The notes under the pieces are model-generated. The model did no database searches. It had not been told where the DNA came from and worked only from the letters and a program-made list of their open reading frames with translations. DNA of 64,000 nucleotides, taken from assembly GCA_021780375.1 (NCBI GenBank), contig JAJXYT010000127.1, positions 9,524 to 73,523 of the forward strand, given 5' to 3'. Positions 16,457 to 32,625 of the stretch are shown piece by piece. The translations under genes were made by a program, and so were the position numbers. This DNA comes from a bacterium. Its GTDB lineage: Bacteria > Verrucomicrobiota > Verrucomicrobiia > Limisphaerales > UBA11358. How positions within the stretch are numbered: position 1 is the stretch's first letter; each line of letters opens with the position of its first letter.

Positions 16457-16474
16457 ATACGACATACGTCGCAT
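16457..16474. promoter_or_regulatory. Operator-like palindrome (copy 3, one mismatch)
   Basis: ATACGACatacGTCGCAT lies 39 nt upstream of the GH43/GH30 start at 16418. Confidence 0.4.
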
Positions 16475-16620
16475 GGTCCGGGCAACACGCTCTGCTCCGC
16501 CACTTTTCCCAGGGTTCAATCCACGCCCCGTACGCACATGACTTTTGTTGGAACCCGGCCACAACAAGATTGGGGGTTGCCATTTTTTGAAATCGTTAAT
16601 CCCCCCGTGAAGCAATCAGG

Positions 16621-16638
16621 ATACGACGTTTGACGGAT
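16621..16638. promoter_or_regulatory. Degenerate copy of the operator-like palindrome
   Basis: ATACGACgtttGACGGAT has a perfect left half-site and two mismatches in the right half-site. It lies 98 nt upstream of the ROK regulator start. Confidence 0.2.
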
Positions 16639-16735
16639 TGTGGGTAAGAGGCCGCATAAGAATAATTGTACTCACTTAACGGGAATCACAATGACCATTC
16701 CCGCAGGCATATGAAGCCGGCCTTAGAGGATTTTT

Positions 16736-17947: not shown

Positions 17948-17994
17948 GAACAAACCAATAAAATCAGCCATCATTCATTCTCGCCTGGACTTCA

Positions 17995-18582
17995 ATGAAC
18001 ACCGTCGAAACTGAATCAACTGCCCTGGCCGTACCGGATCGCGCCGGCTTTCAAATTAATTCCCGCGAACTGGAAACCATTTTCAAAATCGAGGAAAGCG
18101 TTGTGTACATGTTGCGTCACCTGAACAGGCCGTTACAGGTTGCGACGCTGGCCGCTCGAGTGGATCTCTCCAAATCCCACTTCACTGCTTTGTTCAAACG
18201 CTATGTCGGCGGCACGCCCATTGACTACTTTATCCGGCTGCGCCTGCGACAAGCCTGCCGTTTGTTGGAAGATACCCGGATGAGCGTGAAAGAAATCGGC
18301 TACACGCTGGGTTATGACGATCCCTTTTACTTTTCGCGAATCTTTAAATCCTTTAACCAAATCGCGCCAAGCCAATATCGCCTGCGAAAGCGTAAAACCG
18401 AGGAAGCGCCTCGGCGAATTCTGGCCGGCTGCGCCTGTTCCCGGTTTATGCCTGTTGAAAACGGCCTTCGAAATGCAATCCCTTCCGGCCCGGGCCCCAC
18501 AGGCAGTGAAGACCTCTGCCAACCTTCGCGCACTTTGTCTGAAAGTGAGGTTCGGCGAATGACCCGCCTGCGGCACCGCTGA
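17995..18582 (+). CDS. AraC-family HTH transcriptional regulator (DNA-binding domain plus a short tail, no obvious sensor domain)
   Basis: LATLAARVDLSKSHFTALFKRYVGGTPIDYFIRLRLRQACRLLEDTRMSVKEIGYTLGYDDPFYFSRIFKSFNQIAPSQYR is a typical double-HTH AraC domain. Confidence 0.85.
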   Translation: MNTVETESTALAVPDRAGFQINSRELETIFKIEESVVYMLRHLNRPLQVATLAARVDLSKSHFTALFKRYVGGTPIDYFIRLRLRQACRLLEDTRMSVKEIGYTLGYDDPFYFSRIFKSFNQIAPSQYRLRKRKTEEAPRRILAGCACSRFMPVENGLRNAIPSGPGPTGSEDLCQPSRTLSESEVRRMTRLRHR

Positions 18583-18724
18583 CTTATTAAGTCGGCTTTG
18601 CACTGTTTCGTGGTGGTTTAAAACTCGCTACCGAACGTGGTCATCGGGCAGTCCGGCAACAGCCGCGTCATCTCATCCATCACCAGTTGGCCTGTCCGGG
18701 TGATGTGACTTGGATCGCCATGAT

Positions 18725-18895
18725 TCACATCTCCAGGTTCATGGCCGGCTGCCGGCAGGCCTCGTTTTTGACGTTCACCAGCCTTTGGGCGAGTGCAAGG
18801 TCTCCGGTTTGAACGCTGGTCTGCCGGTTCTTCTCGACCTCCCGGCAGTCGAAATTCCCGTTGCCCCGCCTGAACAGATGGTTGGGCTGTTTCAT
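18725..18895 (-). pseudogene. Possible remnant of a tyrosine-integrase N-terminal (arm-binding) region
   Basis: A 56-aa frame (below the track cutoff) reads MKQPNHLFRRGNGNFDCREVEKNRQTSVQTGDLALAQRLVNVKNEA... The pattern LFRRG.G.(F/Y)..R......R.TS..T.D...A resembles the beginning of many phage-type integrases. No catalytic domain follows. It sits 166 bp from the distal tRNA-derived repeat. Confidence 0.25.
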
Positions 18896-19060
18896 GGGCT
18901 TTACGCTTTTTCAAGCCTGCTCCACAGTTCATCCGGGTGGTTAACGACTTCTGACAGGCTTTTGAGTGACTAAGTGATGCCAGCGCACCATTCATCGAGC
19001 GTCTCACTGACAATTGACGGTCGTGGCTTTCCAACCTTCTCCCTGGCAACCATCTGCAGA

Positions 19061-19084
19061 TGGAGCCAATGGCCGGGATTGAAC
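19061..19084. repeat. Distal att-like direct repeat (copy of the last 24 nt of tRNA-Thr)
   Basis: TGGAGCCAATGGCCGGGATTGAAC is identical to 30618-30641. The flanking sequence on both sides is unrelated. Confidence 0.8.
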
Positions 19085-19448
19085 AAACCCGCAGCGCACA
19101 AGCTCCTCAAAATCAAACGCCTATGGCATCGCTGATGTATTGACTGCAAAGCTGTTGCGTTTTATGTCAAGGATAACTCCATCCGACTTCTTTTAACTCC
19201 ATTTAACCCTCACCAAATGCGGTTTGCTGGCATTCCTGCCGGCACTTTTCAGCCGCCGTTTACATTTACCGGCGTAAAAAGTTCGAGGACGTGGCTCAAT
19301 GGCGGCATCCGGTGCATGTTCCGGAGTAACAAAACTCAAAGAGAGCGCAAAGGAATTGGGGTTGGAACCAGACCTATGGTCTTATGCAATTATTGGTCCC
19401 GTCCGTTACGTGGAAAATAAAATTCCCATCTTATAAATTCTCTCCCGA

Positions 19449-20516
19449 TTATTTCATCTGTGCCAGAATCTGGTCGGTGATGGCCTTCACCGCGGCCTCA
19501 GCTTCTGGATCGAGGCCGGCCGTAGTTTTGGCATTCGCGTCCACAGCGCAGGTGACGCCGGGGCGCCATTCCGCATTGTCACAGAGTTCGCATTCCTTCA
19601 TGCCGTAGCGCGGGTCCACGTAGCCGAGACTCTGCTTGATTTTGAGCAGGTCCTGAAGCTGGCCCGGCGTGAAGGTGTTCGGCGTTTTGCCGAGCTGCGC
19701 GGTGACCAGCAGGTTGCGGCAATACGCCTCAACGATTTCCACGCGCCAGTAGGCTTCCTCCAGATTGTTGTGGCTCCACGTCACGACGCCGTGGTTGGCC
19801 ATCAGGATCGTATTGTGCTTGTCCACCAGTTCAGCGACGAGCTTGCCCATTTCCGGCGTGCCGGGCGTGCGATACGGCGCCAAGGCCACGCTCAAAAACA
19901 CCTCGTATTCCGGGATCATGCACGTCGGCGGCACAATGCCCGCGATGGCGAATCCGGTGGCATAGGGCGGATGACAATGGCATGAGGCCACCGCCTTGGG
20001 CTGCTTTTGCATGATCTGCAAGTGCATCAAGATTTCACTGGTGCGTTTCTTGACGCCGCAGAGTTGGTTGCCCTCAAAATCCACGAGACACATGTCCTCC
20101 GGCTTGAGCGACCCCTTGCTGACGAGCGTCGGCGTGCAAATCGCGATGTCTTCGCCCGCGCGAATAACCATGTTGCCGCCATTGCCGTCCACGTAGGCGC
20201 GCTGCCAGAGACGACGGCCGATTTCGCACATCTGCTCCTTCAAACTGTGCGCGTAAGACGAATGGAAAAAGGCCTCCAATTCCGATCGGGACGACTTCGA
20301 ACTCAGCGGCCGGGAAGGCGGCGCGGGTTTGTCCCCGTTCGCAATGACACCGGAGTTGTTTTTGTCGGCGGTTACTTTCGTTCCGCCATTGGTTTCCAGT
20401 TCAAAAAGAAGGTCACGCGCGGACGGCGTGAGGATGGCATCGGCCGGAAGATTCTTCACGTCCTGGCCGCTACGAACCATTTCCCGCACATCCCGAACAC
20501 TGATAATCCTGTTCAT
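19449..20516 (-). CDS. Class II aldolase (fuculose/rhamnulose-1-phosphate aldolase-like), BMC-associated, with N-terminal extension and C-terminal encapsulation-peptide-like helix
   Basis: The class II aldolase/adducin core runs GNGGNMVIRAG...HCHPPYATGFAI...LMANHGVVTW. Start is set at ATG 20516 (MNRIISVRDV...), 16 nt after the upstream stop. The C-terminus EAEAAVKAITDQILAQMK is amphipathic. Confidence 0.85.
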   Translation of the reverse strand: MNRIISVRDVREMVRSGQDVKNLPADAILTPSARDLLFELETNGGTKVTADKNNSGVIANGDKPAPPSRPLSSKSSRSELEAFFHSSYAHSLKEQMCEIGRRLWQRAYVDGNGGNMVIRAGEDIAICTPTLVSKGSLKPEDMCLVDFEGNQLCGVKKRTSEILMHLQIMQKQPKAVASCHCHPPYATGFAIAGIVPPTCMIPEYEVFLSVALAPYRTPGTPEMGKLVAELVDKHNTILMANHGVVTWSHNNLEEAYWRVEIVEAYCRNLLVTAQLGKTPNTFTPGQLQDLLKIKQSLGYVDPRYGMKECELCDNAEWRPGVTCAVDANAKTTAGLDPEAEAAVKAITDQILAQMK

Positions 20517-20532
20517 AAAATCAAAATCCAAC

Positions 20533-20838
20533 TCAGCCCCGCCACGGGCTGTAAAACATTTCGTCCACGAGCACGGTGTTGATTGCGTCCACCGGTGTCG
20601 GCCGGGCAAACGGCTGGGCGGCCTCGCGGCCTTCCTCGTAACCAATGATTTGCCGCGCGTCTGCGCCCAGATCGTCGTAAACGACAAGGCTGGGGTCTTG
20701 GCCCATGCCCGCGGGCGCGTTGAGACCGGCGGCGAACTGCTCGCGGCTGAATGGACTGACGATCAAAAATCTCCCGCCTTTGAGCGAGTCCATGGCCTGG
20801 CTCAAAGTCACCCGGCCGATGACGGTTCCGAGTTTCAT
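20533..20838 (-). CDS. BMC-P pentameric vertex protein (EutN/CcmL family), paralog 3
   Basis: MKLGTVIGRVTLSQAMDSLKGGRFLIVSP...PVDAINTVLVDEM is consistent with the EutN fold. The ATGA start/stop overlap with the upstream BMC-P at 20835-20838 suggests translational coupling. Confidence 0.8.
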   Translation of the reverse strand: MKLGTVIGRVTLSQAMDSLKGGRFLIVSPFSREQFAAGLNAPAGMGQDPSLVVYDDLGADARQIIGYEEGREAAQPFARPTPVDAINTVLVDEMFYSPWRG

Positions 20839-21113
20839 ATTCTTTTTCCGGGTTCGTGTTCGTCCACGATGCCAATCACCAGCCAGCGCACCGGGCTTCG
20901 GTCGTCGCCCACCGCCCGCCGTGCCGCCAAACCGTCCGACGAAATGATCACTGCCTGGTGCATCCCCGCGCCGTGCGAATCTATCGCCAACTGCGGCGCG
21001 CCTTCCGGCTTGCCGCTCGCGCCGACGGGCTGGCAAATGACGAGACGCCAGCCGTGGAGACTCGGATGCTTCCGGGTCGCCACGACGTTGCCTTCAACGC
21101 GCGCGAGCAGCAT
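20835..21113 (-). CDS. BMC-P pentameric vertex protein (EutN/CcmL family), paralog 2
   Basis: MLLARVEGNVVATRKHPSLHGWRLVICQPV...AIDSHGAGMHQAVIISSDG...WLVIGIVDE matches the EutN family. Confidence 0.9.
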   Translation of the reverse strand: MLLARVEGNVVATRKHPSLHGWRLVICQPVGASGKPEGAPQLAIDSHGAGMHQAVIISSDGLAARRAVGDDRSPVRWLVIGIVDEHEPGKRI

Positions 21114-21116
21114 AAA

Positions 21117-22631
21117 TCAATAGATCCTCAATTGGTCCACCATCACGCAGCGGCGGACGCGTGTAAATGTGCGCGGATTTGTCACCCCTTCGCCGGTCGG
21201 CGTGGCGATGGAATAGCTCAAGTAACCTTCGCCGCCCAGGCCAAGGCCAGCCATGCACGGGCCATTCTTGATGAATAGCGTCGTGTCCAGCGCACGTGCC
21301 ATCGCTGTCATGTTTTCCACGTCATGCGAATGGATGATGCTCGTATGTTTGTACCCGTGCTCGGCTTTCAGTGCGTGTTCAATACCTTCCTCTATGCTCT
21401 GCACACGGACAATGGGCACAAATGGCATCATTTGTTCCTCTTCGACGAATGGATGGTTTGCGTCCGTTTCGGCGAACAGCAATTGCGTGTCCGGCCGGAT
21501 GTCCACGCCCGCCGCGCGCGCGAGGATAACCGGGTCTTTGCCAATGAATTCTTTGTTTACGCTCGCGCGGGCGCAACCACCGCCCTGGCCATCCGTGATG
21601 GTAAAGGCCGCCTTCGTCAACTGGTCGAGCTGCGCGGAATTCAGCTTCATTCCGCCATTTTCCGACATTTGTTGGATCAGATTATCGGCCACGTGGTCGA
21701 GCACGAAAATTTCCTTTTCGCCGATGCACAGCAGATTGTTGTCGTATGCGGCGCCGGCGATGATTGCCCGGGCGGCGCGCTTCAGACAGCAGGTGTCGTC
21801 CACGAACACCGGCGGATTGCCGGGGCCGGCGCAGATGGCACGCTTGCCCGTTTGCATGGCGGCTTTCACGACTGCCGGACCGCCGGTGACCAGCAGCAAC
21901 CGGACGGATTCGTGTTTGCAAATTGCATTGAAACTTTCGAGGGTTGGCTTTTCGACAAGGCAGGCGATATTCTCGATGCCCGTTTCACGGTAAATCGCTT
22001 CATTGTAGGTCCGCACCGCGTGGGCGGCGCAACGCGCGGCGCCCGGATGCGGATTGAAAACCACCGCGTTGCCGGCGGCGGCGATGTTCACAATGTTGCC
22101 GGTCATCGTCGGCACCGAATGCGTGCTGGGCGTGACCGCGCCGACGACGCCGAACGGCGTGTACTCTTCCAGCGTGATGCCGTGATCACCGCTCCGGCCG
22201 TCCGGATGGAGCCAGTCCACGCCGGGCACCAGCTTGATGATTTTCAACTTCTCGATTTTGTGATCCAGCCGGCCGATGTTGGTCTCGTCAAGTTCCAGCT
22301 TGCCCCACGCCTCGGCGTTTTTTCCGGCGAGGGTCTTGACAATTTCCTCAATTTTTCGGCGGGCTTCGATCCCTTTTTGTTTGAGCTGCAAATAAGCTTC
22401 CTGGGCGGCGGCACAAGCTTCATTCGCATCCTGAAACACACCGAATTTGCCGCGCAGGGAGACGTTCGCTGCGGAAGATTTCCTCGTTTCGCAACCGCAC
22501 GCTGGCGTTAGTGCGCGCCGTGGGGCGGACGGAGCCGGGAGCGGCCTGGCATCCGCGCCCGGGGCGCTGCCCAATTTGCCGAGCACTTCGGCCACCACGT
22601 CGCGGATCAAAGTTTCGTTCACGGCATTCAT
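21117..22631 (-). CDS. CoA-acylating aldehyde dehydrogenase (PduP/EutE family) with N-terminal encapsulation peptide
   Basis: 504-aa ALDH-fold protein (GGPAVVKAAMQTGKRAICAGPGNPP, catalytic Cys region NNLLCIGEKE). The N-terminal MNAVNETLIRDVVAEVLGKLG is a classic amphipathic encapsulation-peptide-like helix followed by a linker. Confidence 0.9.
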   Translation of the reverse strand: MNAVNETLIRDVVAEVLGKLGSAPGADARPLPAPSAPRRALTPACGCETRKSSAANVSLRGKFGVFQDANEACAAAQEAYLQLKQKGIEARRKIEEIVKTLAGKNAEAWGKLELDETNIGRLDHKIEKLKIIKLVPGVDWLHPDGRSGDHGITLEEYTPFGVVGAVTPSTHSVPTMTGNIVNIAAAGNAVVFNPHPGAARCAAHAVRTYNEAIYRETGIENIACLVEKPTLESFNAICKHESVRLLLVTGGPAVVKAAMQTGKRAICAGPGNPPVFVDDTCCLKRAARAIIAGAAYDNNLLCIGEKEIFVLDHVADNLIQQMSENGGMKLNSAQLDQLTKAAFTITDGQGGGCARASVNKEFIGKDPVILARAAGVDIRPDTQLLFAETDANHPFVEEEQMMPFVPIVRVQSIEEGIEHALKAEHGYKHTSIIHSHDVENMTAMARALDTTLFIKNGPCMAGLGLGGEGYLSYSIATPTGEGVTNPRTFTRVRRCVMVDQLRIY

Positions 22632-22638
22632 GATTCAA

Positions 22639-22953
22639 TCACTGCGACTTCGCACTAAAGATTTGTTTTCCGAAGACATCCACGGTGTCCACGATGCCGA
22701 TGATGACGGCATCCACCGGCGCCTCCTTCAGGCCTGGCGCCAGGCGCGAGCTGCTGCCCTGGCAGAACAAAACCATCTCGCCTTCGCCGCAGCCGACGCT
22801 GTCCACGGCCACGATGGTGTTCACACCCGGACGGAATTTCGCCGGGTTCTTTTCGTCCACGAGTTGCGGACGGAGCAACAAGAGTTTGCGCCCCGACAGG
22901 TTCGGGCTTTTCTTGGTGGCGACCACGGTGCCTTCGACTTTGGCCAGAAACAT
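22639..22953 (-). CDS. BMC-P pentameric vertex protein (EutN/CcmL family), paralog 1
   Basis: MFLAKVEGTVVATKKSPNLSGRKLLLLRPQ...AVDSVGCGEGEMVLFCQGSS...AVIIGIVDTVD matches the EutN family. Start is set at the internal ATG 22953. Confidence 0.85.
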   Translation of the reverse strand: MFLAKVEGTVVATKKSPNLSGRKLLLLRPQLVDEKNPAKFRPGVNTIVAVDSVGCGEGEMVLFCQGSSSRLAPGLKEAPVDAVIIGIVDTVDVFGKQIFSAKSQ

Positions 22954-23040
22954 AAATGTTGGGCAGTTAGGAGACGGGAGTTGGAACTCAGGAATAACAG
23001 CGGGTAAAAACCCATCTGCCATCCGCCAACTCCAATCCGC

Positions 23041-23322
23041 TTATTTCTTTTTCGGCAACACCGCCTCGACATCGTTGTGCGGACGGGCGATGACATGAAC
23101 GCTAACCAGCTCGCCTTTGATGGCTTTGATAGCCTGTGCGCCGGCGTCCGTCGCCGCCTTGACCGCGGCGACGTCGCCAACGACACACGCTGTGACGAGC
23201 GCATTGCCGACCTGCGTCACCGGGCCGACCAGTTCGACATTGGCGGCCTTGAGCATGGCATCCGTGCCCTCGACGAGGGCGACGAGTCCGCGTGTTTCAA
23301 TGAGTCCGATTGCTTGTGGCAT
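23041..23322 (-). CDS. BMC-H hexameric shell protein (PduA/EutM type, Pfam00936-like)
   Basis: MPQAIGLIETRGLVALVEGTDAMLKAANVELVG...[14 protein letters not shown]...VSVHVIARPH is a canonical BMC domain. Confidence 0.95.
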   Translation of the reverse strand: MPQAIGLIETRGLVALVEGTDAMLKAANVELVGPVTQVGNALVTACVVGDVAAVKAATDAGAQAIKAIKGELVSVHVIARPHNDVEAVLPKKK

Positions 23323-23360
23323 AGTTTTATTTCGTTGATGGTTGAACCTTGTTCGTTAAA

Positions 23361-24551
23361 TCAATTTTTCTTCGCTTCCAAAAATCGCTTGGCTTCGCGC
23401 GCCACAACCAGTTCCTCGTTCGCGGGAATGACAAACAATTTTACCGCCGAATCCGCGGTGCTGATAACGGCTTCGGCCGCGCGCGCGGAGTTGTTCCTGC
23501 CCGCATCCAGTTTGATTCCGAGGTTTTCCAGGTTCGTGCAAATCGCCGCGCGCAACGCCGGATGGTTCTCCCCCGTGCCGGCGGTGAACACCATGGCATC
23601 CGCGCCGTTCAATTCCAGGAAATAGCTGCCGATCCAATGCCGCGCGCTGGCGACGAAAACGTCGAGCGCAAGTTTGGCCCTGGTGTTTCCTTTGGCTGCC
23701 GCAGCGGTGATGTCGCGCACGTCGTTGGAAACGCCGCTCAATCCGAGCAACCCGGACTGTTTTGTGAGCTGTTCCCGCGCTTTTTCCACGCTCAGGCCGA
23801 GGGTTTTCATGGCGTAAGGCAGGGCCTCGGCGTCAAGGTCGCCGACGCGGTTGTTCTGCGGCAGGCCGGATTGCGGGCTCATGCCCATGCTCGTGCCGAT
23901 GGAGACGCCGTTCAGGACCCCGGTGATGCTTGAACTGCCACCCAAATGGCAGGAAATCACCCGCAACGGCGCGCCGGAAATTTTCGCCGGGCCGCTCTGG
24001 ACGTATAGCTGCCGCGCGCGCTCGGCCACGTCGGGCCGGCCGAGCAGCTCCGCCGAACGCTCGGCAATGAACTTGTGGCTCGCCCCGTGAAAACCCCAAC
24101 GGCGAATGCCAATGTTCAGCCATGCTTCCGGCACGGCGTAGCGTTGGGAAGCTTCGGGCGCAAACTGGTGAAACGCCGTTTCAAACAATCCAATGAGCGG
24201 GACGCGGGGCACACGTTGCGCAAATAGCTTGATGCCGGCGAGGTACGACGGATTGTGCGCGGGCGCAAGGGCGCTGTAATCGGCCATCGCCTGCAACACG
24301 CGCTGGTCCAGCTCCACGCAGCCGGTGATATTTTTGGCGATGACGGTTTTGAAGCCGACCGCGCTCAACTCACCTTCGCCCTGAATCGCGTTCGTTTTTT
24401 TCAACTCAACCAGACAATCCTCAATCGCCCGGGAGTAATCCGTCACCCGCTCGAAGCCGCCTTCATGCACAAGGCGCTCGGCGCTGTTTGAAAAGTCAAA
24501 CAGGCGCCACTTCAGCGAAGTCGAACCAATGTTGGCGACAAGGATCTTCAT
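23361..24551 (-). CDS. ackA: Acetate/propionate kinase family protein (BMC-locus acyl-phosphate kinase)
   Basis: MKILVANIGSTSLKWRLFDF..., RRWGFHGASH and ISCHLGGSSS are acetate kinase signatures. The true start is ATG 24551; the 108 upstream codons in the track ORF are Arg-rich shadow. Confidence 0.9.
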   Translation of the reverse strand: MKILVANIGSTSLKWRLFDFSNSAERLVHEGGFERVTDYSRAIEDCLVELKKTNAIQGEGELSAVGFKTVIAKNITGCVELDQRVLQAMADYSALAPAHNPSYLAGIKLFAQRVPRVPLIGLFETAFHQFAPEASQRYAVPEAWLNIGIRRWGFHGASHKFIAERSAELLGRPDVAERARQLYVQSGPAKISGAPLRVISCHLGGSSSITGVLNGVSIGTSMGMSPQSGLPQNNRVGDLDAEALPYAMKTLGLSVEKAREQLTKQSGLLGLSGVSNDVRDITAAAAKGNTRAKLALDVFVASARHWIGSYFLELNGADAMVFTAGTGENHPALRAAICTNLENLGIKLDAGRNNSARAAEAVISTADSAVKLFVIPANEELVVAREAKRFLEAKKN

Positions 24552-24637
24552 ATTGGCAATCTTGGATTCATGATTTGCGAGTGTTACTGACGCACGGAAT
24601 TTTCCCGGCGCGTCCCGCATCAATCGCAACCCATAAA

Positions 24638-24916
24638 TCACTCCAGCCACTTGCCCAGTCCGCTCAATCCTTCGTGCGGGCGCGGAATCACCTGGACGCT
24701 GACAACCGAGCCGACTTGCGACGCGGCGGCGGCGCCCGAATCCGTCGCGGCCTTGACGGCGGCAACGTCGCCGCGGAAAAACACAGTGACGTATCCGCTG
24801 CCGATTTTTTCCCAGCCGGTGATATGGACGCTTGCGGATTTTAGCGCGGCATCGGCGGCCTCCATGGCCGCGCAAAATCCCTTGGTTTCAATCATGCCCA
24901 CAGCTTGCTTTGACAT
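24638..24916 (-). CDS. BMC-H hexameric shell protein
   Basis: [61 protein letters not shown]...VQVIPRPH is a BMC domain. Only the last 92 codons of the 191-aa track ORF are real. Confidence 0.9.
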
Positions 24917-24950
24917 AAATGTGAATGGTTTGGGTTGTGTGTTGAGATAA

Positions 24951-25235
24951 TCATTTCTTTGCGCCCTGGCCGAGGAAGGCCTGGAGCAATTCGTCATGAG
25001 GGCGCGCAATGACGTGCGAACAAATGAGTTCGCCGACTTTGGCCGCAGCCCTGGCGCCGGCGTCCACTGCGGCCTTGATGCTGCCGACGTCACCCCTGGC
25101 GAGGACGGTGATGAGCCCGCCACCGATGGGGATGGTTTTGACCAACGTGACGTTGGCCGCCTTGACCATGGCGTCGCTGGCTTCCACACTGCCAACGTAG
25201 CCCTTGGTTTCAATCATTCCTATTGCTTCACTCAT
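24951..25235 (-). CDS. BMC-H hexameric shell protein
   Basis: [34 protein letters not shown]...[14 protein letters not shown]...SHVIARPH is a BMC domain. Confidence 0.95.
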
Positions 25236-25281
25236 GTTTTGTTTTGGTTGCTGGTTGAGGTTGTCGAAAATGTTCCGGCAA

Positions 25282-25959
25282 TCATTTGACGAGTTCTACC
25301 GGTGTGTCCGGTTCCAGGTTGCACGCGTTGCCCTCGTCGGTGTCAATGTGGACCTCCAGTTTGAACACCTTGTCCACCCGGCAAAGCATTTTGTCGAGGA
25401 AGATGCCGCACTCGCCGCCAATTTTGAGCTTTATGGCATCGCCGCCTTTTACACCGTAAAATTCCGCGTCCGCCGGGCTCAGGTGCACGTGCCGCATCGC
25501 GCGAATGACGCCCTGCTCCATTTCAAAAAAACCTGCCGGCCCCATCAACATCGCCCCGGGCGTGCCTTGAATGTTGCCCGAAAGCCGCAGGGGAACGTTG
25601 AAGCCAAGCGCGATGGCGTCGCTATAGGCCAGTTCCACCTGATTCAAATTCCGGCACGGGCCGAGGATGCGCAGATTGGAGATCACGCGGCTGCGCGGGC
25701 CGATGAGTGTGACCGTTTCCTTTGCCGCGAACTGGCCTTCCTGATAAAGCCATTTGTGCACGCCAAGTTGGTGGCCCTTGCCAAAAAGAAGTTCCACGGT
25801 TTCAGGCGTGAGGTGGCAATGCCGCGCGCTAACGTTGACGACCAGCGGATTCGGCGCCACAGCCACACGCGGCAACGGTTTGCCCAAGCGCGCGTAAACT
25901 GCCCGTCGGACGAGATGTTCGACCACAGCGCGATGAGGTGCAGGCATCACGGCATTCAT
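25282..25959 (-). CDS. pduL: PduL-type phosphotransacylase with N-terminal extension
   Basis: Two PduL repeats are present: [20 protein letters not shown] and [18 protein letters not shown]. The N-terminal [18 protein letters not shown] is amphipathic and encapsulation-peptide-like. Confidence 0.9.
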
Positions 25960-25962
25960 AAA

Positions 25963-26033
25963 AATCTGATTGAAATTGACAGATTATGAAATAAAGTCAA
26001 CATTTTTCTTGCAAAATATTCCACAATCTGTCA
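25963..26033. promoter_or_regulatory. AT-rich divergent promoter region with AATCTG/CAGATT words (candidate DeoR operator)
   Basis: AATCTGATT (25963), TGACAGATT (25977) and its inverted partner AATCTGTCA (26025) lie in the 86-bp gap between pduL (minus) and the DeoR gene (plus). Confidence 0.3.
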
Positions 26034-26045
26034 CTCTAGTGAAAA

Positions 26046-26834
26046 ATGACGGCAGAAGAGCGTAAACATCGCATTGAAACCTATCTTCAACGGGTTGAAT
26101 TCGCGTCACTGGAGGAATTATCCCGGCATGTGAATGCCTCTATTTCCACCATTCGGCGCGATTTAACAACGCTCGAAGCGGCAGGAAATTTGCGCCGCAC
26201 TCATGGTGGCGCACGCTTGGTGACACCAAAGACCGACGAATTTGCGTTTACGGCACGCGATACACACCAGGTTTCGGAAAAGGAAGCCATCGGCAAAGCC
26301 TGCGCCGCACTGATTGACGCGAACCAAAGCGTGATTCTCGACGCGGGGACGACGGTTTATCACGTCGCACGGCATCTCGAAGAAAGGGCACTGCAGATCG
26401 TGACGAACTCTCTGCCAGTCGCAAATCTTTTTGCCTCCGCAAACAAGATGGAAATCATTCTGGCGGGCGGGGTGATTTATCCGCGACTTGGCGTGCTGGT
26501 CGGGCCGATGACGGTCGAAGCGTATTCCAAGCTGCGTGCCAGCGTGGCGATCATGGGCGCGGGCGGCATTACGCTTGAAGGCATCACGAATTCGCACGCG
26601 CTGTTGATTGACATCCAGCGCGCGATGCTGAAAGCGGCACAGAAAATCATTTTTTGTCTCGACCACACAAAATTTGGGCGGCCGTCCGTCTCCCCACTCT
26701 GCGAACTCGACCGGGCGGACACCATCGTCACAGACAGCCACGCCCCGCAAGAGCTAGTTGCTGGTTTGCGTGCACGGGGAATCGAAGTGATTGTGGCGCC
26801 GGAAACACCAGACCGGCTGGACAACTGCGGATAG
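26046..26834 (+). CDS. DeoR-family transcriptional regulator
   Basis: The N-terminal HTH is EELSRHVNASISTIRRDLTTLEAAGNLRRTHGGA. The C-terminal DeoR sugar-phosphate sensor domain includes SVILDAGTTVYHVARHL and IVTNSLPVA. Confidence 0.9.
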   Translation: MTAEERKHRIETYLQRVEFASLEELSRHVNASISTIRRDLTTLEAAGNLRRTHGGARLVTPKTDEFAFTARDTHQVSEKEAIGKACAALIDANQSVILDAGTTVYHVARHLEERALQIVTNSLPVANLFASANKMEIILAGGVIYPRLGVLVGPMTVEAYSKLRASVAIMGAGGITLEGITNSHALLIDIQRAMLKAAQKIIFCLDHTKFGRPSVSPLCELDRADTIVTDSHAPQELVAGLRARGIEVIVAPETPDRLDNCG

Positions 26835-26842
26835 AATTAAAA

Positions 26843-28159
26843 ATGAACCTGGCAGAAGAAGTCAGATTAGCCGGTGTCGTCGGGGCGGGCGGCGGCGGAT
26901 TTCCCACCCACGTCAAGCTTAACGCCAAGGCTGAAACTGTGATTGCCAACGGCGCGGAATGCGAGCCACTCCTGCACAAGGACGCTGTCATCATGGAAGA
27001 AAGCGCCGCCGAAGTGGTGCGCGGAATGCAGCTGGCCATCGAAGCTGTGGGCGCGAAGGAAGGCGTCATCGGCATCAAAGGCAAAAAGAAGCGCGCCGTC
27101 GAGGCGGTCGCCGCCGCCTGCCAGGGCAGGAATATTCGCGTCCAGTTGCTGGGCGACTATTATCCGGCCGGCGATGAATTCGATTTGGTTTACAGCGTCA
27201 CCGGCAAGTTAATTCCGCCCGGGGGCATTCCCCTTGACGTCGGCGTTCTTGTCAACAACGTCGAGACGTTCGTGAACATTGCCGCCGCCCACGACGGCCA
27301 GCCGCTTACGCATAAAATGCTGACGATTGCCGGCGCGGTAAAATCGCCGGCGACCCTGAAGGTGCCGTTGGGCACGACGTTCCGCGAGTGCATCCAACAT
27401 GCCGGCGGCCTGGCGACGGACGATCCGGTGTTGGTCATCGGAGGTCTGATGATGGGCCGGCACACCGACGACCTCGACACCCCTGTCACCAAGACTTCGA
27501 CCGGCGGCGTCATTCTGCCTCGCACACATCACGTCATCGAACGCAAGCTCAAGCCCAGCCGGGCGCAAGCGAGCATCGGCAAGTCCGCATGCGACCAATG
27601 CCGTTACTGCACCGAGTATTGTCCGAGATATTTACTCGGTTACTCCGTCGAGCCCCACCAAGTCATGCGCACGCTCGCCTTCACCGGCACGGGCGCGGAT
27701 TATTACAATCAGTGGGCGGCCCTGTGCTGCGCGTGTGGACTCTGCACGCTTTACGCCTGCCCGGAGGAGTTGTTTCCGAAGGAAGCCTGCGACGACGCCA
27801 AAGCGGTCATGCGTGCCAAACAAATCAAGTGGACCGGCCCCATGCATCCCAAGCCGCACGCGATGGCGGATGGGCGCCATGTGCCCATCCAGATGCTGGC
27901 GAAAAAACTGCACGTGCTTGATTATGATTTGCCCGCGCCGCTGCTCGAAGAGGCAATTGCACCAGGCCGGCTCATTCTGCCGCTCAAGCAAAGTGCGGGA
28001 ACAGCGTGCTTGCCGAAAGTGAAGATTGGCGACCGCGTGAGTGCCGGTCAAGTCATCGGTGAACCGGCCCCGAACGCGCTCGGTGCATTATTGCACGCGC
28101 CGGTTGCCGGCGTCGTCAACGGGGTAAATGCTCAACAAATCATTCTAGAGATATCATGA
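26843..28159 (+). CDS. RnfC/PduS-like Fe-S (flavo)protein
   Basis: GVVGAGGGGFPTHVKL is an RnfC-type motif, and an SLBB-like segment is present. There are two ferredoxin-type Cys clusters: CDQCRYCTEYCP and CCACGLCTLYACP. The C-terminal barrel-sandwich-like tail is VKIGDRVSAGQVIG. Start is ATG 26843; the track ORF start at 26654 overlaps DeoR. Confidence 0.8.
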   Translation: MNLAEEVRLAGVVGAGGGGFPTHVKLNAKAETVIANGAECEPLLHKDAVIMEESAAEVVRGMQLAIEAVGAKEGVIGIKGKKKRAVEAVAAACQGRNIRVQLLGDYYPAGDEFDLVYSVTGKLIPPGGIPLDVGVLVNNVETFVNIAAAHDGQPLTHKMLTIAGAVKSPATLKVPLGTTFRECIQHAGGLATDDPVLVIGGLMMGRHTDDLDTPVTKTSTGGVILPRTHHVIERKLKPSRAQASIGKSACDQCRYCTEYCPRYLLGYSVEPHQVMRTLAFTGTGADYYNQWAALCCACGLCTLYACPEELFPKEACDDAKAVMRAKQIKWTGPMHPKPHAMADGRHVPIQMLAKKLHVLDYDLPAPLLEEAIAPGRLILPLKQSAGTACLPKVKIGDRVSAGQVIGEPAPNALGALLHAPVAGVVNGVNAQQIILEIS

Positions 28160-28707
28160 ACGAAAAATCTATCGGCCTGCTTGAACTCTCGAGCATTGCG
28201 GCAGGTTTCCTGGTCGCCGACACTATGCTCAAAGCCAGCAACGTGCGCATCCTGCTCTCGCGTTCGATCTGCTCGGGTAAATACATGGTCCTGATTGGAG
28301 GTGAGACGGCGGCGGTCGAGGCCGCCACAGCGGCGGGCGAGTCGGCGGCCAACGGCTGCCTGATTGACAGCCTCACGCTCGCCAATCTGCATCCGGACGT
28401 GATCACGGCAATCGGCCGCACGCAGCCAGTCCAGCCGGACGGCGCGCTGGGCGTCCTTGAATCATTTAACGTGGCCACCATGATCAAGGCGGCCGATGCA
28501 GCGGCCAAGGCGGCCGATATAGAATTGTTGGAACTCCGGCTGGCGATGGCGCTGGGCGGCAAGGCGTTCTGCACCATGACCGGCGATGTGGCCTCGGTGC
28601 AGGCCGGCGTGGCTGCCGGCCGCGCGGTTATTGCTGAAGCCGGCGTGCTGGTGAATGCGGTGGTGATTTCACGGCCGCATCCGGACGTTTACCGTGAAGT
28701 GATTTGA
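28156..28707 (+). CDS. BMC-T tandem-domain shell protein, PduT-like
   Basis: There are two BMC domains. By recall it aligns with Salmonella PduT ([21 protein letters not shown] vs [33 protein letters not shown] vs DSLVLANIHPSV), including the pore Cys that ligates a [4Fe-4S] cluster in PduT. An ATGA overlap links it to the preceding gene. Confidence 0.85.
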   Translation: [183 protein letters not shown]

Positions 28708-28940
28708 TTTCGATGCGCCGCCGGTCAACGGTGATTGCTCCTGCAGTGTTTTGACCCGTTGCTGCTGAAAGCGATGGGCGGGTGAAAAATCAGTTTATGC
28801 GCCGGGGGACTTCCCGCCGGTCAGGGGCGTCCCAAGGGCGGAAGCCGCCATCAAAACCTGACCCTGGCCCAAGAGCAAGCCGTGCTGGCTCCGTGGCAAC
28901 GGCTATACAGAAGCGCATAAATAACGCTACATTATGGCGA

Positions 28941-29676
28941 TCAAAAAAACGGCGCGAGCAAACCCTGGATTTTTTCGGGGTGTTTCTGCACCGCGTCAAA
29001 AGTGCGAAACAAACTACCGCAAAGATCGGCGGGCTTTTCAAAGAACCGGTGATGGGTGGCCTCCCGACGAGTGTAATGCCAGAGCCGTTCCTGAGCGTTG
29101 AGTTCGGGCGAGTATTTGGGCAGCGGAAAGCCTTCCGGTGTCACCACAACTGCGATCACCAGTTGCGCGCGATCGGGCCGATGATCCCGGGAATAGCCGC
29201 GCGCCGCTTTTTCGACGCCTTCCGCCTCCCCTTCGAAATACGTGCTGGTCAGGTCGTAGAGCAGCACGTCGAAACTGGCGCCAAAGAGATCGCGCCATTT
29301 ATCGGCCAGATGCCGCTCCAACGCGTCCTTGTGCCCCACCATCCGGTCCAGGGCCCGATACAGCCGATCCTTCTGCGCCACCGCTGCGCTGCCACCGTTC
29401 CACCTGCGTGGTGTTCAGTTCGCCCAAGTGCAGCACCCTGCGTTGCACCACGCGTTGGCGGCTGACGCGAAGACTTTCCGTGAGGCTATAGTAAACATGG
29501 CGCTTGCCGTCTTTACAACGCTTGTGCGCCTTCAGAAACGTGTCGGCATTCTGACAACGGGCGAGCGGCGCCTGTCTACGGGCTGGGTCTTCCCACAGGC
29601 TTCCAGCGCTCGGCTCATGCAAAATCGCCAGCAAATCGCCACCGACGTTCGCAAAAAAAAATCCAAATCGCTGCAT
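28941..29676 (-). mobile_element. Decayed transposase debris: frameshifted IS1634-family N-terminal part fused to an IS630-family C-terminal fragment
   Basis: Frame A (29299-29676) reads KDGKRHVYYSLTESLRVSRQRVVQRRVLHLGELNTTQVERW. Frame B (29121-29381) reads LLYDLTSTYFEGEAEGVEKAARGYSRDHRPDRAQLVIAVVVTPEGFP, which is IS1634/IS4-like. Residues encoded at 28944-29120 read LPKYSPELNAQERLWHYTRREATHHRFF, an IS630 DDE_3 tail. No intact transposase and no inverted repeats were recognised. Confidence 0.6.
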
Positions 29677-29763
29677 ATCTGCGAAAGTCAGGTTAGATGT
29701 TGGCTTCCCCCTCGACAGGGAAAATTAGAGCCGTTTTGGCACGCTGCCTGCCGCAATTGTCCC

Positions 29764-29949
29764 ATGCAACCGCGACTGCACATCAAAGACATTTGCCGGA
29801 TTTACGGCTTCTCGAGGTCCACCCTGTACCGCCGGCTTCGTGACGGCCGTTTCCCCAGGCCGATCCGGAGCCTGGGACTGATCTGGCAGCCCGAGGACCT
29901 GGCCCTGGCAGAATCCGCGGGACAGGTCCCGCCGCGGCAGTCCCCTTAA
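29764..29949 (+). CDS. alpA: AlpA/excisionase-type small HTH protein
   Basis: The 61-aa product contains LHIKDICRIYGFSRSTLYRRLRDGRFPRPIR, the AlpA-family pattern (SRST.YR....G.FP.P). Its location between IS debris and the att/tRNA site fits this call. Confidence 0.65.
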   Translation: MQPRLHIKDICRIYGFSRSTLYRRLRDGRFPRPIRSLGLIWQPEDLALAESAGQVPPRQSP

Positions 29950-30070
29950 TTGTCCCGCCTTTAACCTGGATTTGAGCTTGGAAAGGGCTTTGCCCCGTCA
30001 AATTGTCCCCGGTTTTGTCCCATCAATCTGTCCCAAGGATGTCCCTTGAAATTGTCCCGCCAAATGTCCC
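29950..30070 (+). repeat. Iteron array: direct repeats of (A/T)TGTCCC, six of them at 11-13 bp spacing
   Basis: TTGTCCC occurs at 29950, 30003, 30015 and 30052; CTGTCCC at 30028; ATGTCCC at 30039 and 30064. One more TTGTCCC at 29757 abuts the alpA ATG. All copies have the same orientation. Confidence 0.75.
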
Positions 30071-30132
30071 AGATCGGCATCCGGGACGGAAAAGTGTCTT
30101 GAAAGGGGTACAAAGCATGTTGTCATTTTGAT

Positions 30133-30393
30133 ATGAAGCAAATTTTGATTCGGGAAGTAGAAGACGATTTTGTTGAGATCCTGGATCGGGAAGCCAAACG
30201 GCACCGGCGAAGTCGTGAGAAACATGCCCTGTTCCTTATCGAGCAGGGACTGGGTCAGCGGCCATTGGAGACTGCCGGTGAACTGCTGGACGCGCTTGAA
30301 GCGGCGCCAGCGCCAAATCTCGTGAGTGAGCAGGAGATCGAAAAGATTCTTCGGCAGCGAGGACGCAGATCGAATCGTCCGGCAACGCCATGA
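30133..30393 (+). CDS. Ribbon-helix-helix antitoxin (FitA/VapB/Arc-like)
   Basis: MKQILIREVEDDFVEILDREAKRHRRSREKHALFLIEQGL matches the RHH antitoxin N-terminal pattern. An ATGA overlap joins it to a PIN-like start. Confidence 0.6.
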   Translation: MKQILIREVEDDFVEILDREAKRHRRSREKHALFLIEQGLGQRPLETAGELLDALEAAPAPNLVSEQEIEKILRQRGRRSNRPATP

Positions 30394-30491
30394 TTGCGGA
30401 CACGACTTTTCTAAGCGATTTGGTGAGAGAATTCCGGGACAACCGGACGGGACCGGCAACAAGAATTTTTCCGGCCACTCGCGCCCGATAA
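30390..30491 (+). pseudogene. Truncated PIN-domain (VapC/FitB-like) toxin, first 33 codons only
   Basis: MIADTTFLSDLVRE... matches the PIN N-terminal strand with the first acidic residue (M-I-x-D-T-x-x-L/I-x-D/E-L). The frame stops after 33 aa, whereas normal PIN toxins are ~130 aa. Confidence 0.45.
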
Positions 30492-30617
30492 TTTGGATCA
30501 ATTCCTGGTGATATTCGCGCGTCCTCTGCCTCACGACGCCAGCCCTCAAAGCAGCCCACGTGAGAAGTGAATCCCGTAAACACACAAGGCAGAATTCACC
30601 CGGGCTAAAAGCAAGTT

Positions 30618-30641
30618 TGGAGCCAATGGCCGGGATTGAAC
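30618..30641. repeat. tRNA-proximal att-like repeat (3' 24 nt of tRNA-Thr)
   Basis: Identical to 19061-19084. Confidence 0.8.
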
Positions 30642-30692
30642 CGGCGACCGACGGTTTACGAAACCGTTGCTCTACCGCTGAGCTACATTGGC
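30618..30692 (-). tRNA. tRNA-Thr (anticodon CGU), CCA encoded
   Basis: Hand-folded cloverleaf: GCCAATG TA GCTC AGCGGTA GAGC A ACGGT TTCGTAA ACCGT CGGTC GCCGG TTCAATC CCGGC CATTGGC T CCA. All four stems are fully paired, the T-loop is TTCAATC, and the total length is 75 nt. Confidence 0.9.
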
Positions 30693-30821: not shown

Positions 30822-31631
30822 TCAACGCCAAACCGGATTGAACGATTCCAGGGCCGCGTTCATACCCGCGACCAACGCATTCACGCGAACCGGCAATGGA
30901 AAATCCGAGGGCGCCTCCAGCGTACAACCCAGCCGTGATTTGTTCATAATCAAATAAAATGCCTCGGCCCATTGCGGGCGCGTGTTGGGATCGAGCTTCG
31001 GTCGGATAATGCCGCCGTTCGCCGGGCGGTCCTCGATGATTTCCGACGGATCAATCGGGCAGACCTTTCGGACTGCTTCGATGATTTTCTCCGCAAGCGC
31101 AGGTTGTTGGTCAGGATTCTGTTCATAGAGGTAAAAACCATGTGCTTCCCAATCTTCGTGCAGGCAAAGATACAAATCGAACTGCGGCTGGCGTTCCAAC
31201 CACGCAATGTGGGCACGGACTTCGGCGGTTTCCAGATGCCGGTAATCGCGGTTCAAATCCTTGCCGTCGGGATTCTCCCGGCGGTTCAAAACAAAACCCA
31301 CCGGGTTCAAGCAGGGACAAAACCAGAGTTCGGCATCCGCCGGCCAGTGGTTTTCCTGAAGCAATCGCAACGCGGCCATGGGTCCCGCCGGTTCGTCGCC
31401 ATGAATGCCGGCACTCAGGTAAACACGGGTCGAGTGAAGCGGGGGGAGAGACGCGGCCCGGTGCAGGGTGAACAGGTTGAATTCGCCTTGTCGGCCAAAA
31501 TTTTCCGGAGTCCAGCCGTGCTGCTGTGCCGCGATTCCGATGTCACGCAACACGGCGCGGATGTCAATCGTTTCGCCGTGGTAGCCACCGTGATTTTTGC
31601 CAAGCCTTTCCACGCGGAGAATTTCACGCAA
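30822..31631 (-). CDS. M14-like zinc carboxypeptidase / succinylglutamate desuccinylase-aspartoacylase superfamily protein
   Basis: Supported by SAGIHGDEPAG (the H-x-x-E zinc motif), CLNPVGF, GKDLNRDY and LCLHED. Confidence 0.7.
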   Translation of the reverse strand: MREILRVERLGKNHGGYHGETIDIRAVLRDIGIAAQQHGWTPENFGRQGEFNLFTLHRAASLPPLHSTRVYLSAGIHGDEPAGPMAALRLLQENHWPADAELWFCPCLNPVGFVLNRRENPDGKDLNRDYRHLETAEVRAHIAWLERQPQFDLYLCLHEDWEAHGFYLYEQNPDQQPALAEKIIEAVRKVCPIDPSEIIEDRPANGGIIRPKLDPNTRPQWAEAFYLIMNKSRLGCTLEAPSDFPLPVRVNALVAGMNAALESFNPVWR

Positions 31632-31662
31632 AGATGAAAAGACGCCAACACATTTTATTCGT

Positions 31663-32520
31663 TCACGCCGGCTGCGGAATCAGGCGGTCTTGCTCAACGC
31701 GGGGCGAACTTTCCCAGGCAATCATCGCGCGCTTGCGGATTGGTCCCCACCGGTAGTTCCCAATCACCCCGGTTTCGCGGATGACGCGGTGGCAGGGGAT
31801 AAGATACGCCAGCGGATTTTGTCCTACGGCGGCACCGACGGCGCGCGCGGCGGCCGGCCGGCCCAGCGTCGCCGCCAAACGGCCGTAGCTGGTGAGCGAA
31901 CCGGGCGGGACCTGTAATAACGCCCGCCAGACGCGCACTTGAAACGGCGTGCCGCGCACAAACGCGCGCAACCCTGGGCGTGAATGTGTTCCGGAAGGCG
32001 GCGCAAAGATTTTTGCGGCGAGGCGGCTGGCAACGGAATCGTCGCGTTTTATTTTTGCCTGCGGCCAATCGTTTTGAAGTCCGGCCAACGCTGATTTTTC
32101 GTCTTCGACAAATGAAAGATGGCAGACGCCGCGCGGACTTTCGGCGATGAGACATTTTCCAAACGGGCTTTCCGCGAAGCCAACGGAAATCATCCAGCCG
32201 GTGCCGCCGGATTTCCATTCGCCGGGTGAAGCGGCTTCCAGATTCACGCAGAGATCGTGCAGTCGGCCCGGCCCGGACAGGCCGGATTCCAGCGCGGCAT
32301 CCAAAACGCTTTCGCCCTCGCGGAGCAATTTCTGCGCGTGGGCGAGCGTGAGGCATTGGAGAAAATCCTTTGGGGTGACGCCCGCCCACGCGGAAAAAAG
32401 CCGGAGCAAATGAAACGGACTCAAACCGGCGTGCGCCGCCAACGCCGCCAAATCGGGCTGCTCGGCGCGACGCTCGTCCAGATAACGGATGATTTGGGCG
32501 ATGCGTTCGTAATCGTTCAT
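31663..32520 (-). CDS. Ada-like bifunctional protein: AraC-type HTH plus methylated-DNA-protein-cysteine methyltransferase
   Basis: The N-terminal HTH is LAALAAHAGLSPFHLLRLFSAWAGVTPKDFL. The C-terminal MGMT active site IPCHRVI and the FQVRVWRALLQVPPG helix are present. Start is set at MNDYERI (32520). Confidence 0.85.
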   Translation of the reverse strand: MNDYERIAQIIRYLDERRAEQPDLAALAAHAGLSPFHLLRLFSAWAGVTPKDFLQCLTLAHAQKLLREGESVLDAALESGLSGPGRLHDLCVNLEAASPGEWKSGGTGWMISVGFAESPFGKCLIAESPRGVCHLSFVEDEKSALAGLQNDWPQAKIKRDDSVASRLAAKIFAPPSGTHSRPGLRAFVRGTPFQVRVWRALLQVPPGSLTSYGRLAATLGRPAAARAVGAAVGQNPLAYLIPCHRVIRETGVIGNYRWGPIRKRAMIAWESSPRVEQDRLIPQPA

Positions 32521-32625
32521 GGGCACACTTTGCCACCAGATAACGGCCGCTCCCACCCGTTTCTTGCGCCTTTTATTTCCTCTTCGTTGGGCGAGGAGCG
32601 GAAGAAGATTATTGCGTTGCGCGAT

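Follow-up and report, generated by a model that had tools for sequence, protein, structure and literature searches.

In the ICESt1/ICESt3 family of Streptococcus, tandem accretion leaves an integrase-less remnant flanked by attachment (att) sites, termed a cis-mobilizable element (CIME), beside an integrative conjugative element (ICE) or an integrative mobilizable element (IME; reviewed in PMC5704250). Bacterial microcompartment (BMC) loci are commonly thought to move as self-sufficient modules, the 'selfish operon' view (PMC4207490), and a BMC on a genomic island is already known from two cases: Moritella yayanosii has a choline-BMC island of 15 kb (PMC8477399), and Pectobacterium wasabiae has a BMC locus on GI_50 (PMC3486870). 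As summarized in PMC4207490, which cites Erbilgin et al. 2014, the PVM-type BMC (Planctomycetes/Verrucomicrobia) serves the degradation of L-fucose and L-rhamnose. Here, a BMC locus is described in 64,000 nucleotides of a verrucomicrobial contig (JAJXYT010000127.1, lineage UBA11358; this whole stretch is called the window). It lies between a tRNA-Thr gene and a copy of the 3' end of that gene, and probably sits in a decayed, att-bounded island unit that belongs to a tandem array at the tRNA.

The tRNA-Thr(CGU) 3' end would be the attachment site of a family of tyrosine integrases circulating in this verrucomicrobial lineage, and the window would hold a decayed accretion array of two integrated elements. 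From the tRNA outwards, the proposed order is the tRNA with its core, an 11.5-kb segment without integrase, a second core, an integrase pseudogene of about 85 codons, and a deletion junction to the 3' end of an AraC-family gene. The segment itself would comprise, in the same direction, an antitoxin gene of the ribbon-helix-helix (RHH) type with a truncated toxin gene, TGTCCC iterons, alpA, insertion-sequence (IS) debris and the whole BMC locus. As in CIME/ICE accretion, integration is at a tRNA 3' end and direct repeats of that end bound each unit. Like a CIME, the segment keeps attL and attR without integration or transfer genes, and it adjoins a unit whose integrase, here a pseudogene, shares the site specificity; a relative, L015 (comparison loci are numbered with the prefix L), has an integrase and a relaxase at the same tRNA. 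Unlike the described cases, both units are decayed, the neighbouring integrase has been cut by a deletion and no cis-mobilisation partner is left; the host is a Verrucomicrobium. Compared with a classical tRNA island, the intact target tRNA and the direct repeat are present, whereas an internal integrase and an atypical composition are missing.

The 24-mer TGGAGCCAATGGCCGGGATTGAAC occurs exactly twice in the window, at 19061–19084 and 30618–30641. An earlier, sequence-only reading of the window had described it as a perfect 24-bp duplication of the tRNA-Thr 3' end bounding about 11.5 kb, which was confirmed by exact matching of both copies and by detection of the tRNA with ARAGORN and Rfam (RF00005, 71 bits). 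The tRNA-Thr(CGU), on the minus strand at 30618–30692, is intact and 100% identical to its orthologues in L003, L004, L013 and L021. Its final 24 nt form the tRNA-proximal att core (30618–30641, minus strand), which consists of one T-stem base, the T-loop, the 3' strand of the T-stem, the 3' strand of the acceptor stem, the discriminator and the encoded CCA. The distal att core (19061–19084, minus strand) is an exact copy of these nucleotides in the orientation of the tRNA. The two cores are 11,557 bp apart and point the same way. The terminus of the repeat coincides exactly with that of the tRNA; mobile DNA begins at the last base of the tRNA, which is itself left intact. No alignment was obtained between the flanks of one copy and those of the other, and the sequence-only reading had likewise called them unrelated.

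No third copy of TGGAGCCAATGGCCGGGATTGAAC was found elsewhere in the window, even when up to six mismatches were allowed, and none of 100 dinucleotide-preserving shuffles contained any match to the 24-mer, which is the sole perfect long direct repeat across 18.4–30.8 kb. When any 12-mer from the tRNA was sought elsewhere in the window, nothing was found except one inverted 12-mer at 3114, which was judged to be due to chance. The repeat is the true scar of an attachment site, and its tRNA is an integration hot spot in the lineage.

On the far side of the distal core, positions 18660–18895 (minus strand) hold the remains of a tyrosine-integrase gene, corresponding to about its first 85 N-terminal codons. 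A tblastn search aligned this stretch to residues 5–88 of the L015 integrase, a member of Pfam PF00589, with 39% identity over 74 aa (E 3e-8 against the window); identity to the intact integrase of L088 is 45% over 47 aa. The reading frame is broken by one in-frame stop and one frameshift, after which the alignment continues in another frame. The spacing from core to integrase start is 165 nt in the window and 160 nt in L015. The intervening sequence (18896–19060, minus strand), which would be the former attL arm, contains TGTCAGTGA at 19004–19012, 48 nt from the distal core. In an alignment, L046 (TGTCAGTGA) and L015 (TGCCAGCAG) likewise have a TGYCAG motif 48 nt from the end of the tRNA, and the same direct-repeat motif is present upstream of the L088 integrase. 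Because the relic lies at a like spacing and a like arm motif precedes it, the distal repeat is best read as a former junction between a tRNA end and an integrase, that is, an attL. The relic appears to belong to a second element, situated beyond the distal core. The region 18.6–19.06 kb had been taken for chromosomal flank in the sequence-only reading; as the intact L015 integrase is homologous to 18.66–18.90 kb, it is instead the integrase end of another element.

The second element seems to have been truncated. A blastn comparison aligned L170 9735–11754 to window positions 16463–18490 with 90.3% identity over a ROK gene and the AraC-family gene. The homology stops at 18490, 14 nt short of the stop codon of the L170 AraC gene. 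The AraC-family gene of the window (17995–18582) encodes 195 aa as compared with 181 aa in L170, and its C-terminal tail of about 30 residues is unrelated to that of the L170 orthologue, because the junction at about 18490 would have removed the original stop codon. The zone between the end of the L170 homology and the relic (18491–18659) therefore looks like the endpoint of a deletion or rearrangement that truncated the second element and fused its stump to chromosomal DNA.

On the metagenome contig L088 (10001–13485), the housekeeping genes for glycogen phosphorylase, PurA and UppS are directly followed by a lone pair of RnfC-like and BMC-T genes; the 10 kb upstream of the pair hold no further BMC genes. 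Past the pair come HicAB-like debris, direct repeats of TGTCAG and an intact integrase that belongs to the family of the relic. No att repeat was identifiable around this integrase.

On the other side, the tRNA is followed by a conserved chromosomal flank (30822–33729, minus strand) with genes for an M14-like peptidase, an Ada-like regulator and BioB, recognized with Pfam, which anchors the orthology of the tRNA locus. BioB-anchored loci were collected from 80 species genomes, 8 of which showed the orthologous tRNA-Thr(CGU). By these loci the window falls within Verrucomicrobiota, among metagenome-assembled genomes of Limisphaerales or Pedosphaera-like bacteria. The block formed by LeuA, cytochrome c, signal peptidase, BioB, in some cases Ada, and M14 peptidase is kept in dozens of relatives, and in these eight it ends at an identical or near-identical tRNA-Thr(CGU). 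Beyond the tRNA, the content differs among all of L013, L015, L021, L046 and the window. In L013, the closest relative by BioB (94%), the tRNA is followed by an alcohol dehydrogenase and by an efflux system. L015 has a tyrosine integrase 160 nt past the tRNA and a 913-aa TrwC relaxase/helicase 1 kb further (L015:13742–18811), which together look like an ICE or IME at the orthologous site. L046 has a fragment of an L015-type integrase, and L021 has other genes again. None of these four orthologous loci contains the 11.5-kb segment, and no BMC genes are found downstream of the tRNA in the four relatives whose contigs extend 7 kb or more beyond it. The tRNA-Thr(CGU) is thus an integration hot spot, since synteny stops there, the downstream content varies, and integrases are present in L015 and L046. 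Of the eight orthologous loci, four (L003, L004, L009 and L010) have contigs that end 30–820 bp past the tRNA-Thr; assembly breaks are expected at a variable or repeated island junction.

As to the sequence-only proposal of a tRNA-targeting island, the att scar and the hot spot stand, while the single island gives way to a tandem array that includes the relic of a second element. Within the window, the 24-mer did not turn out to be a dispersed repeat, and no relative was found with the BMC locus in the same place but without the repeat, the two outcomes that the same reading had named as contrary to it.

The arrangement is not an assembly chimera, as its junctions are reproduced in independent assemblies and samples. 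The distal junction (AraC, integrase relic, core, aldolase) recurs in two samples and the junction of BMC-T, IS debris and alpA in four, and the same sequence is present on an ENA contig and an NCBI contig of 82.8 kb. Exact look-ups of AraC, BioB, M14 peptidase and BMC-T, as a check for strain polymorphism, returned only the occupied arrangement, identical in four samples.

A contig from another sample, L175 (ERZ27236853), is 99.9% identical to window positions 26032–30663 and departs from the tRNA at the anticodon loop (window 30664 onward). The contig ends with a 39-nt tail (L175:4633–4671) that matched none of the sequences collected for this analysis. This end may be an artefact of the contig end, or a real alternative junction with only the 3' half of the tRNA.

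The BMC locus between the two cores is complete, as the sequence-only reading had it, and counts 13 genes (19449–28707). A structural and enzymatic operon occupies 19449–25959 on the minus strand; it was delineated with Pfam and with gene calls on the identical contig, and its order is that of about 80 related loci. It starts at the distal end with a class II aldolase (19449–20480; Aldolase_II, E 3.9e-40), which adjoins BMC-P genes. Three BMC-P (EutN/CcmL) genes were recognized with Pfam, at 20533–20838, 20835–21113 and 22639–22953, and an aldehyde dehydrogenase (AldDH; 21117–22631, Aldedh over the Pfam cut-off) is encoded between the second and the third. Next are a single-domain BMC-H (23041–23322) and an acetate kinase (23361–24551, Acetate_kinase over the Pfam cut-off). 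Between the latter and another single-domain BMC-H (24951–25217), the gene calls on the identical contig give a BMC-H of 92 aa (24638–24916). The last gene encodes PduL (25282–25959, PTAC over the Pfam cut-off). A divergent operon (26046–28707, plus strand; Pfam and gene calls) encodes a DeoR regulator (26046–26834, DeoRC/HTH_DeoR over the Pfam cut-off), an RnfC/PduS-like flavo-iron-sulfur protein (26843–28159, Pfam) and one tandem BMC protein, BMC-T (28156–28707). The shell set is consequently rich in BMC-P, with three BMC-P, three BMC-H and one BMC-T. From the distal core to the aldolase stop, a non-coding stretch of 364 bp (19085–19448) has no homologue among the loci compared.

By its gene content, the locus is assigned to the PVM type, with which it shares the class II aldolase, the acylating aldehyde dehydrogenase, PduL, acetate kinase, the DeoR regulator, the BMC-P-rich shell and the verrucomicrobial host. 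All tested features are present except the lactate/malate-dehydrogenase-type alcohol dehydrogenase, the proposed regenerator of NAD+. No enzyme of this type is encoded within 19449–28707, and the related verrucomicrobial loci are without one too.

The locus is ordinary for its lineage in sequence, gene order and composition. The approximately 80 related metagenomic BMC loci have the same gene order, with protein identities of 70–97%. The closest AldDH homologues are 91, 90, 89 and 86% identical and all come from the same verrucomicrobial lineage. The closest homologues of the BMC proteins are 80–91% identical, and the genes of the flanks are similar in this respect (BioB 94% at best, ROK 90%). 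The sequence-only reading had proposed to look for a compositional deviation of the segment from its flanks; none was found in GC content or tetranucleotide usage. A foreign origin is disfavoured because the composition is native, the homologues belong to the same lineage, and IS debris separates the BMC locus from alpA. The sole clear tetranucleotide outlier in the window is at 6–13 kb, at a PATR gene. This gene (7733–12613) encodes a 1626-aa protein with PATR autotransporter repeats, and is likely an outlier through its repetitiveness and not through foreign origin.

What sets the locus apart from related PVM loci is its neighbourhood: it lies inside island remnants, and the flanking genes for fucose and rhamnose are missing. 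BMC-T adjoins FucK and FucI, and the aldolase adjoins GatB, in the relative (86%) whose contig is the longest of those with the closest AldDH homologues. In other related loci the neighbours are RhaM/RhaT/RhaI, glycoside hydrolases, or a radical-SAM gene together with a transporter. No FucI or FucK is encoded in the window, no remnant of either is present in the debris, and the RhaM/RhaT/RhaI genes found next to the locus in relatives are missing as well. Homology to the relatives ends at 19445–19453, at the aldolase stop, and at 28700–28722, at the BMC-T stop. Because the usual neighbours are absent and the homology ends at both operon stops, the BMC locus has, to judge from these comparisons, clearly moved out of its usual setting. 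Conversely, neither a neighbouring tRNA-Thr nor a match to a 16-nt core probe was found among the roughly 80 related BMC loci. None of them shares the arrangement, and they lend no support to the suggestion of the sequence-only reading that such islands are a general route for the spread of BMCs in PVC (Planctomycetes–Verrucomicrobia–Chlamydiae) bacteria.

About 1.9 kb of mobile-element debris (28708–30617) lies between BMC-T and the tRNA. The part closest to the BMC locus (28790–29733, minus strand) is insertion-sequence debris, with a DDE_3 fragment and open reading frames (ORFs) that have no family. The fragment (28941–29381) corresponds to the C-terminal end of an IS630-type DDE_3 transposase and scores 26 bits, under the Pfam gathering cut-off of 28.6 bits. 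An IS1634 identity of the debris was sought and not obtained. The following mobile-element backbone (29734–30090, plus strand) was delimited by its Phage_AlpA match and by homology to L172. It consists of an alpA/excisionase-type helix-turn-helix gene (29764–29949, 61 aa; Phage_AlpA 27.7 bits, over the 21-bit cut-off) flanked by eight TGTCCC iterons, all on the same strand, at 29758–30070. Window positions 29734–30034 are 87% identical at the DNA level to L172, which comes from an unrelated sample and diverges left of 29734. As this identity is found in a different gene context, the alpA-iteron module is a real mobile backbone. In L172 (303–1930), the alpA-TGTCCC module is followed by an 86-aa ORF without family match, a weakly PemK/MazF-like toxin and a P-loop NTPase. 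The MazEF-like toxin-antitoxin pair of L172 takes the place of the RHH/toxin pair of the window, and this slot of the backbone appears to be exchangeable. The search for intact relatives of the backbone found a single contig of 2.2 kb, too short to reveal an integrase or an att site.

The RHH/toxin pair (30133–30491, plus strand) is closest to the tRNA. The antitoxin (30133–30393) resembles FitA-like RHH proteins with 23.4 bits, under the Pfam cut-off of 27 bits. The toxin gene (30390–30491; translation MIADTTFLSDLVRE...) overlaps the antitoxin stop and breaks off at 33 codons, some 125 bp away from the core. The 33-codon stub has no match in Pfam; it was recognized as VapC/PIN only by its MI-DT-FLSDL N-terminus, which we take to be a VapC motif. 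A deletion at this point could have removed a tRNA-adjacent integrase. No integrase was found within 19085–30617 with Pfam or tblastn, and no relaxase or type IV secretion gene in the bounded segment, where alpA alone remains. Of the debris enumerated by the sequence-only reading, alpA and the iterons hold, the RHH and IS630 assignments fall below the gathering scores, and IS1634 and PIN could not be verified. The same reading had the island lose its integrase; this would be a presumption, as the single relic found (18660–18895) is that of the neighbouring element.

The scar can be accounted for by the action of an integrase, through which the 11.5-kb segment either entered or was bracketed, since a core copy that ends exactly at the tRNA 3' end requires site-specific recombination with a core-bearing molecule. 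Either the integrase-bearing element would have been present first and received the segment at its tRNA-proximal att site, or it would have inserted itself into the distal att site of the segment. Both orders yield the same map. The BMC locus would most likely have reached the island as cargo from a close relative, or by IS-mediated recruitment. The segment would now be a fixed relic and not an active cassette, because both att sites are kept but there is no integrase in it, and the one nearby is dead. We infer that the BMC locus was relocated or captured within the lineage and is now immobile in appearance.

Several points weigh against this account. The empty site predicted by the sequence-only reading, with the tRNA joined to a homologue of 18.6–19.06 kb, was not found in the tRNA loci of the relatives. 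From the tRNA side, none of the eight loci is joined to the left flank of the window. From the left side, where ROK homologues and their contigs were inspected, the closest (L170, 90% DNA identity) does not join the flanks; after ROK and AraC it has a gene with an arabinofuranosidase domain, with no tRNA, integrase or BMC in the remaining 1.5 kb. Since no genome joins both flanks, the insertion is deduced from geometry. The comparison genomes are metagenome-assembled genomes or metagenome contigs throughout. The integrase relic amounts to about 85 codons at 39–45% identity, and a third, degenerate att core, sought with up to six mismatches, is absent from the 19 kb left of the distal core; a search for contigs reaching past the left end of the window yielded short ones only. 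The segment has no integrase, and its backbone shares nothing with the integrase-bearing relatives. The GC content of 19–29 kb and its tetranucleotide distance are within the range of the conserved flank. Finally, about 1 kb of IS debris intervenes between BMC-T and the alpA backbone, and the BMC locus may not have travelled with the element.

A single island with the BMC locus as its original cargo, which would have lost its own tRNA-adjacent integrase by deletion and would have the distal relic as an irrelevant neighbour, is an unlikely explanation. The perfect cores at both bounds would suit it, alpA, the iterons and the toxin-antitoxin pair form a typical island backbone, and a toxin gene cut after 33 codons at about 125 bp from the core fits the deletion of an integrase next to the tRNA. 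Against this, the segment is devoid of any integrase trace, the IS debris of about 1 kb stands between the BMC locus and the backbone, the L172 backbone differs left of alpA, and the BMC composition is native. None of the other genomes, among the roughly 80 related loci, has a BMC on such an element. The sequence-only reading had also made the BMC locus the original cargo, and nothing shows this to be so, considering the native composition, the same-lineage homologues and the intervening IS debris.

It is more doubtful still that the host's own BMC operons were moved by an IS or by recombination into a small tRNA island, the fucose and rhamnose genes being left behind, without any horizontal acquisition. 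Such a secondary capture would explain why the IS630-type debris abuts BMC-T, why homology to relatives ends exactly at the ends of the operons, and why the composition matches that of the host; the identities of the BMC proteins to lineage relatives (80–91%) also resemble those of the flank genes. Remains of an IS are found on one side of the BMC locus only, whereas the aldolase side offers 364 bp up to the core without any IS trace.

That the segment is still a working cis-mobilizable cassette, excisable as a circle carrying a complete, self-regulated PVM organelle, is very unlikely. For this, the two cores would have to be recombined by a live integrase like those of L015 and L088, supplied from another place in the genome or by an incoming ICE, with the help of alpA and the TGTCCC iterons. 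If true, conjugative elements at the same tRNA could carry the organelle between Verrucomicrobia, and the end of the L175 contig would be the trace of an alternative junction. Last, a BMC locus ancestral at this position, the distal 24-mer being a partial tRNA duplication, a chance match or an assembly artefact, agrees with the native composition and with the identical arrangement in all four samples, but is largely refuted and highly improbable, given that no relative has a BMC at this tRNA, that the end of the repeat coincides exactly with that of the tRNA, with an integrase relic beyond it at canonical spacing, that independent assemblies reproduce both junctions, and that none of the 100 shuffles gave any match.

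The decayed tandem array is therefore retained as the probable setting of the locus, and compares as follows with the BMC islands described previously. As in Moritella and Pectobacterium, a whole metabolosome set, of about 9–15 kb, lies close to genes of mobile elements in island DNA that varies between strains or lineages. The two earlier islands were recognized by their composition or by their absence from compared genomes, whereas at the present locus the att repeats, the target tRNA and the family of the integrase have been resolved; its composition, however, is native and the apparent donor is of the same lineage. With a BMC on a genomic island being known already, the window is a well-resolved example at the level of the att sites, decayed and apparently unique among its relatives.

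The evidence favours a one-off, now-fixed event in a lineage that already owned this BMC, not a general dissemination, and the conceptual gain is small. The vehicle of the horizontal spread of BMCs is rarely resolved; for this PVM-type locus, in an uncultured Verrucomicrobium from soil or peat, we can name the tRNA that was targeted, the site of attachment and the family of the integrase. The case provides a concrete example of the relocation of an organelle locus.

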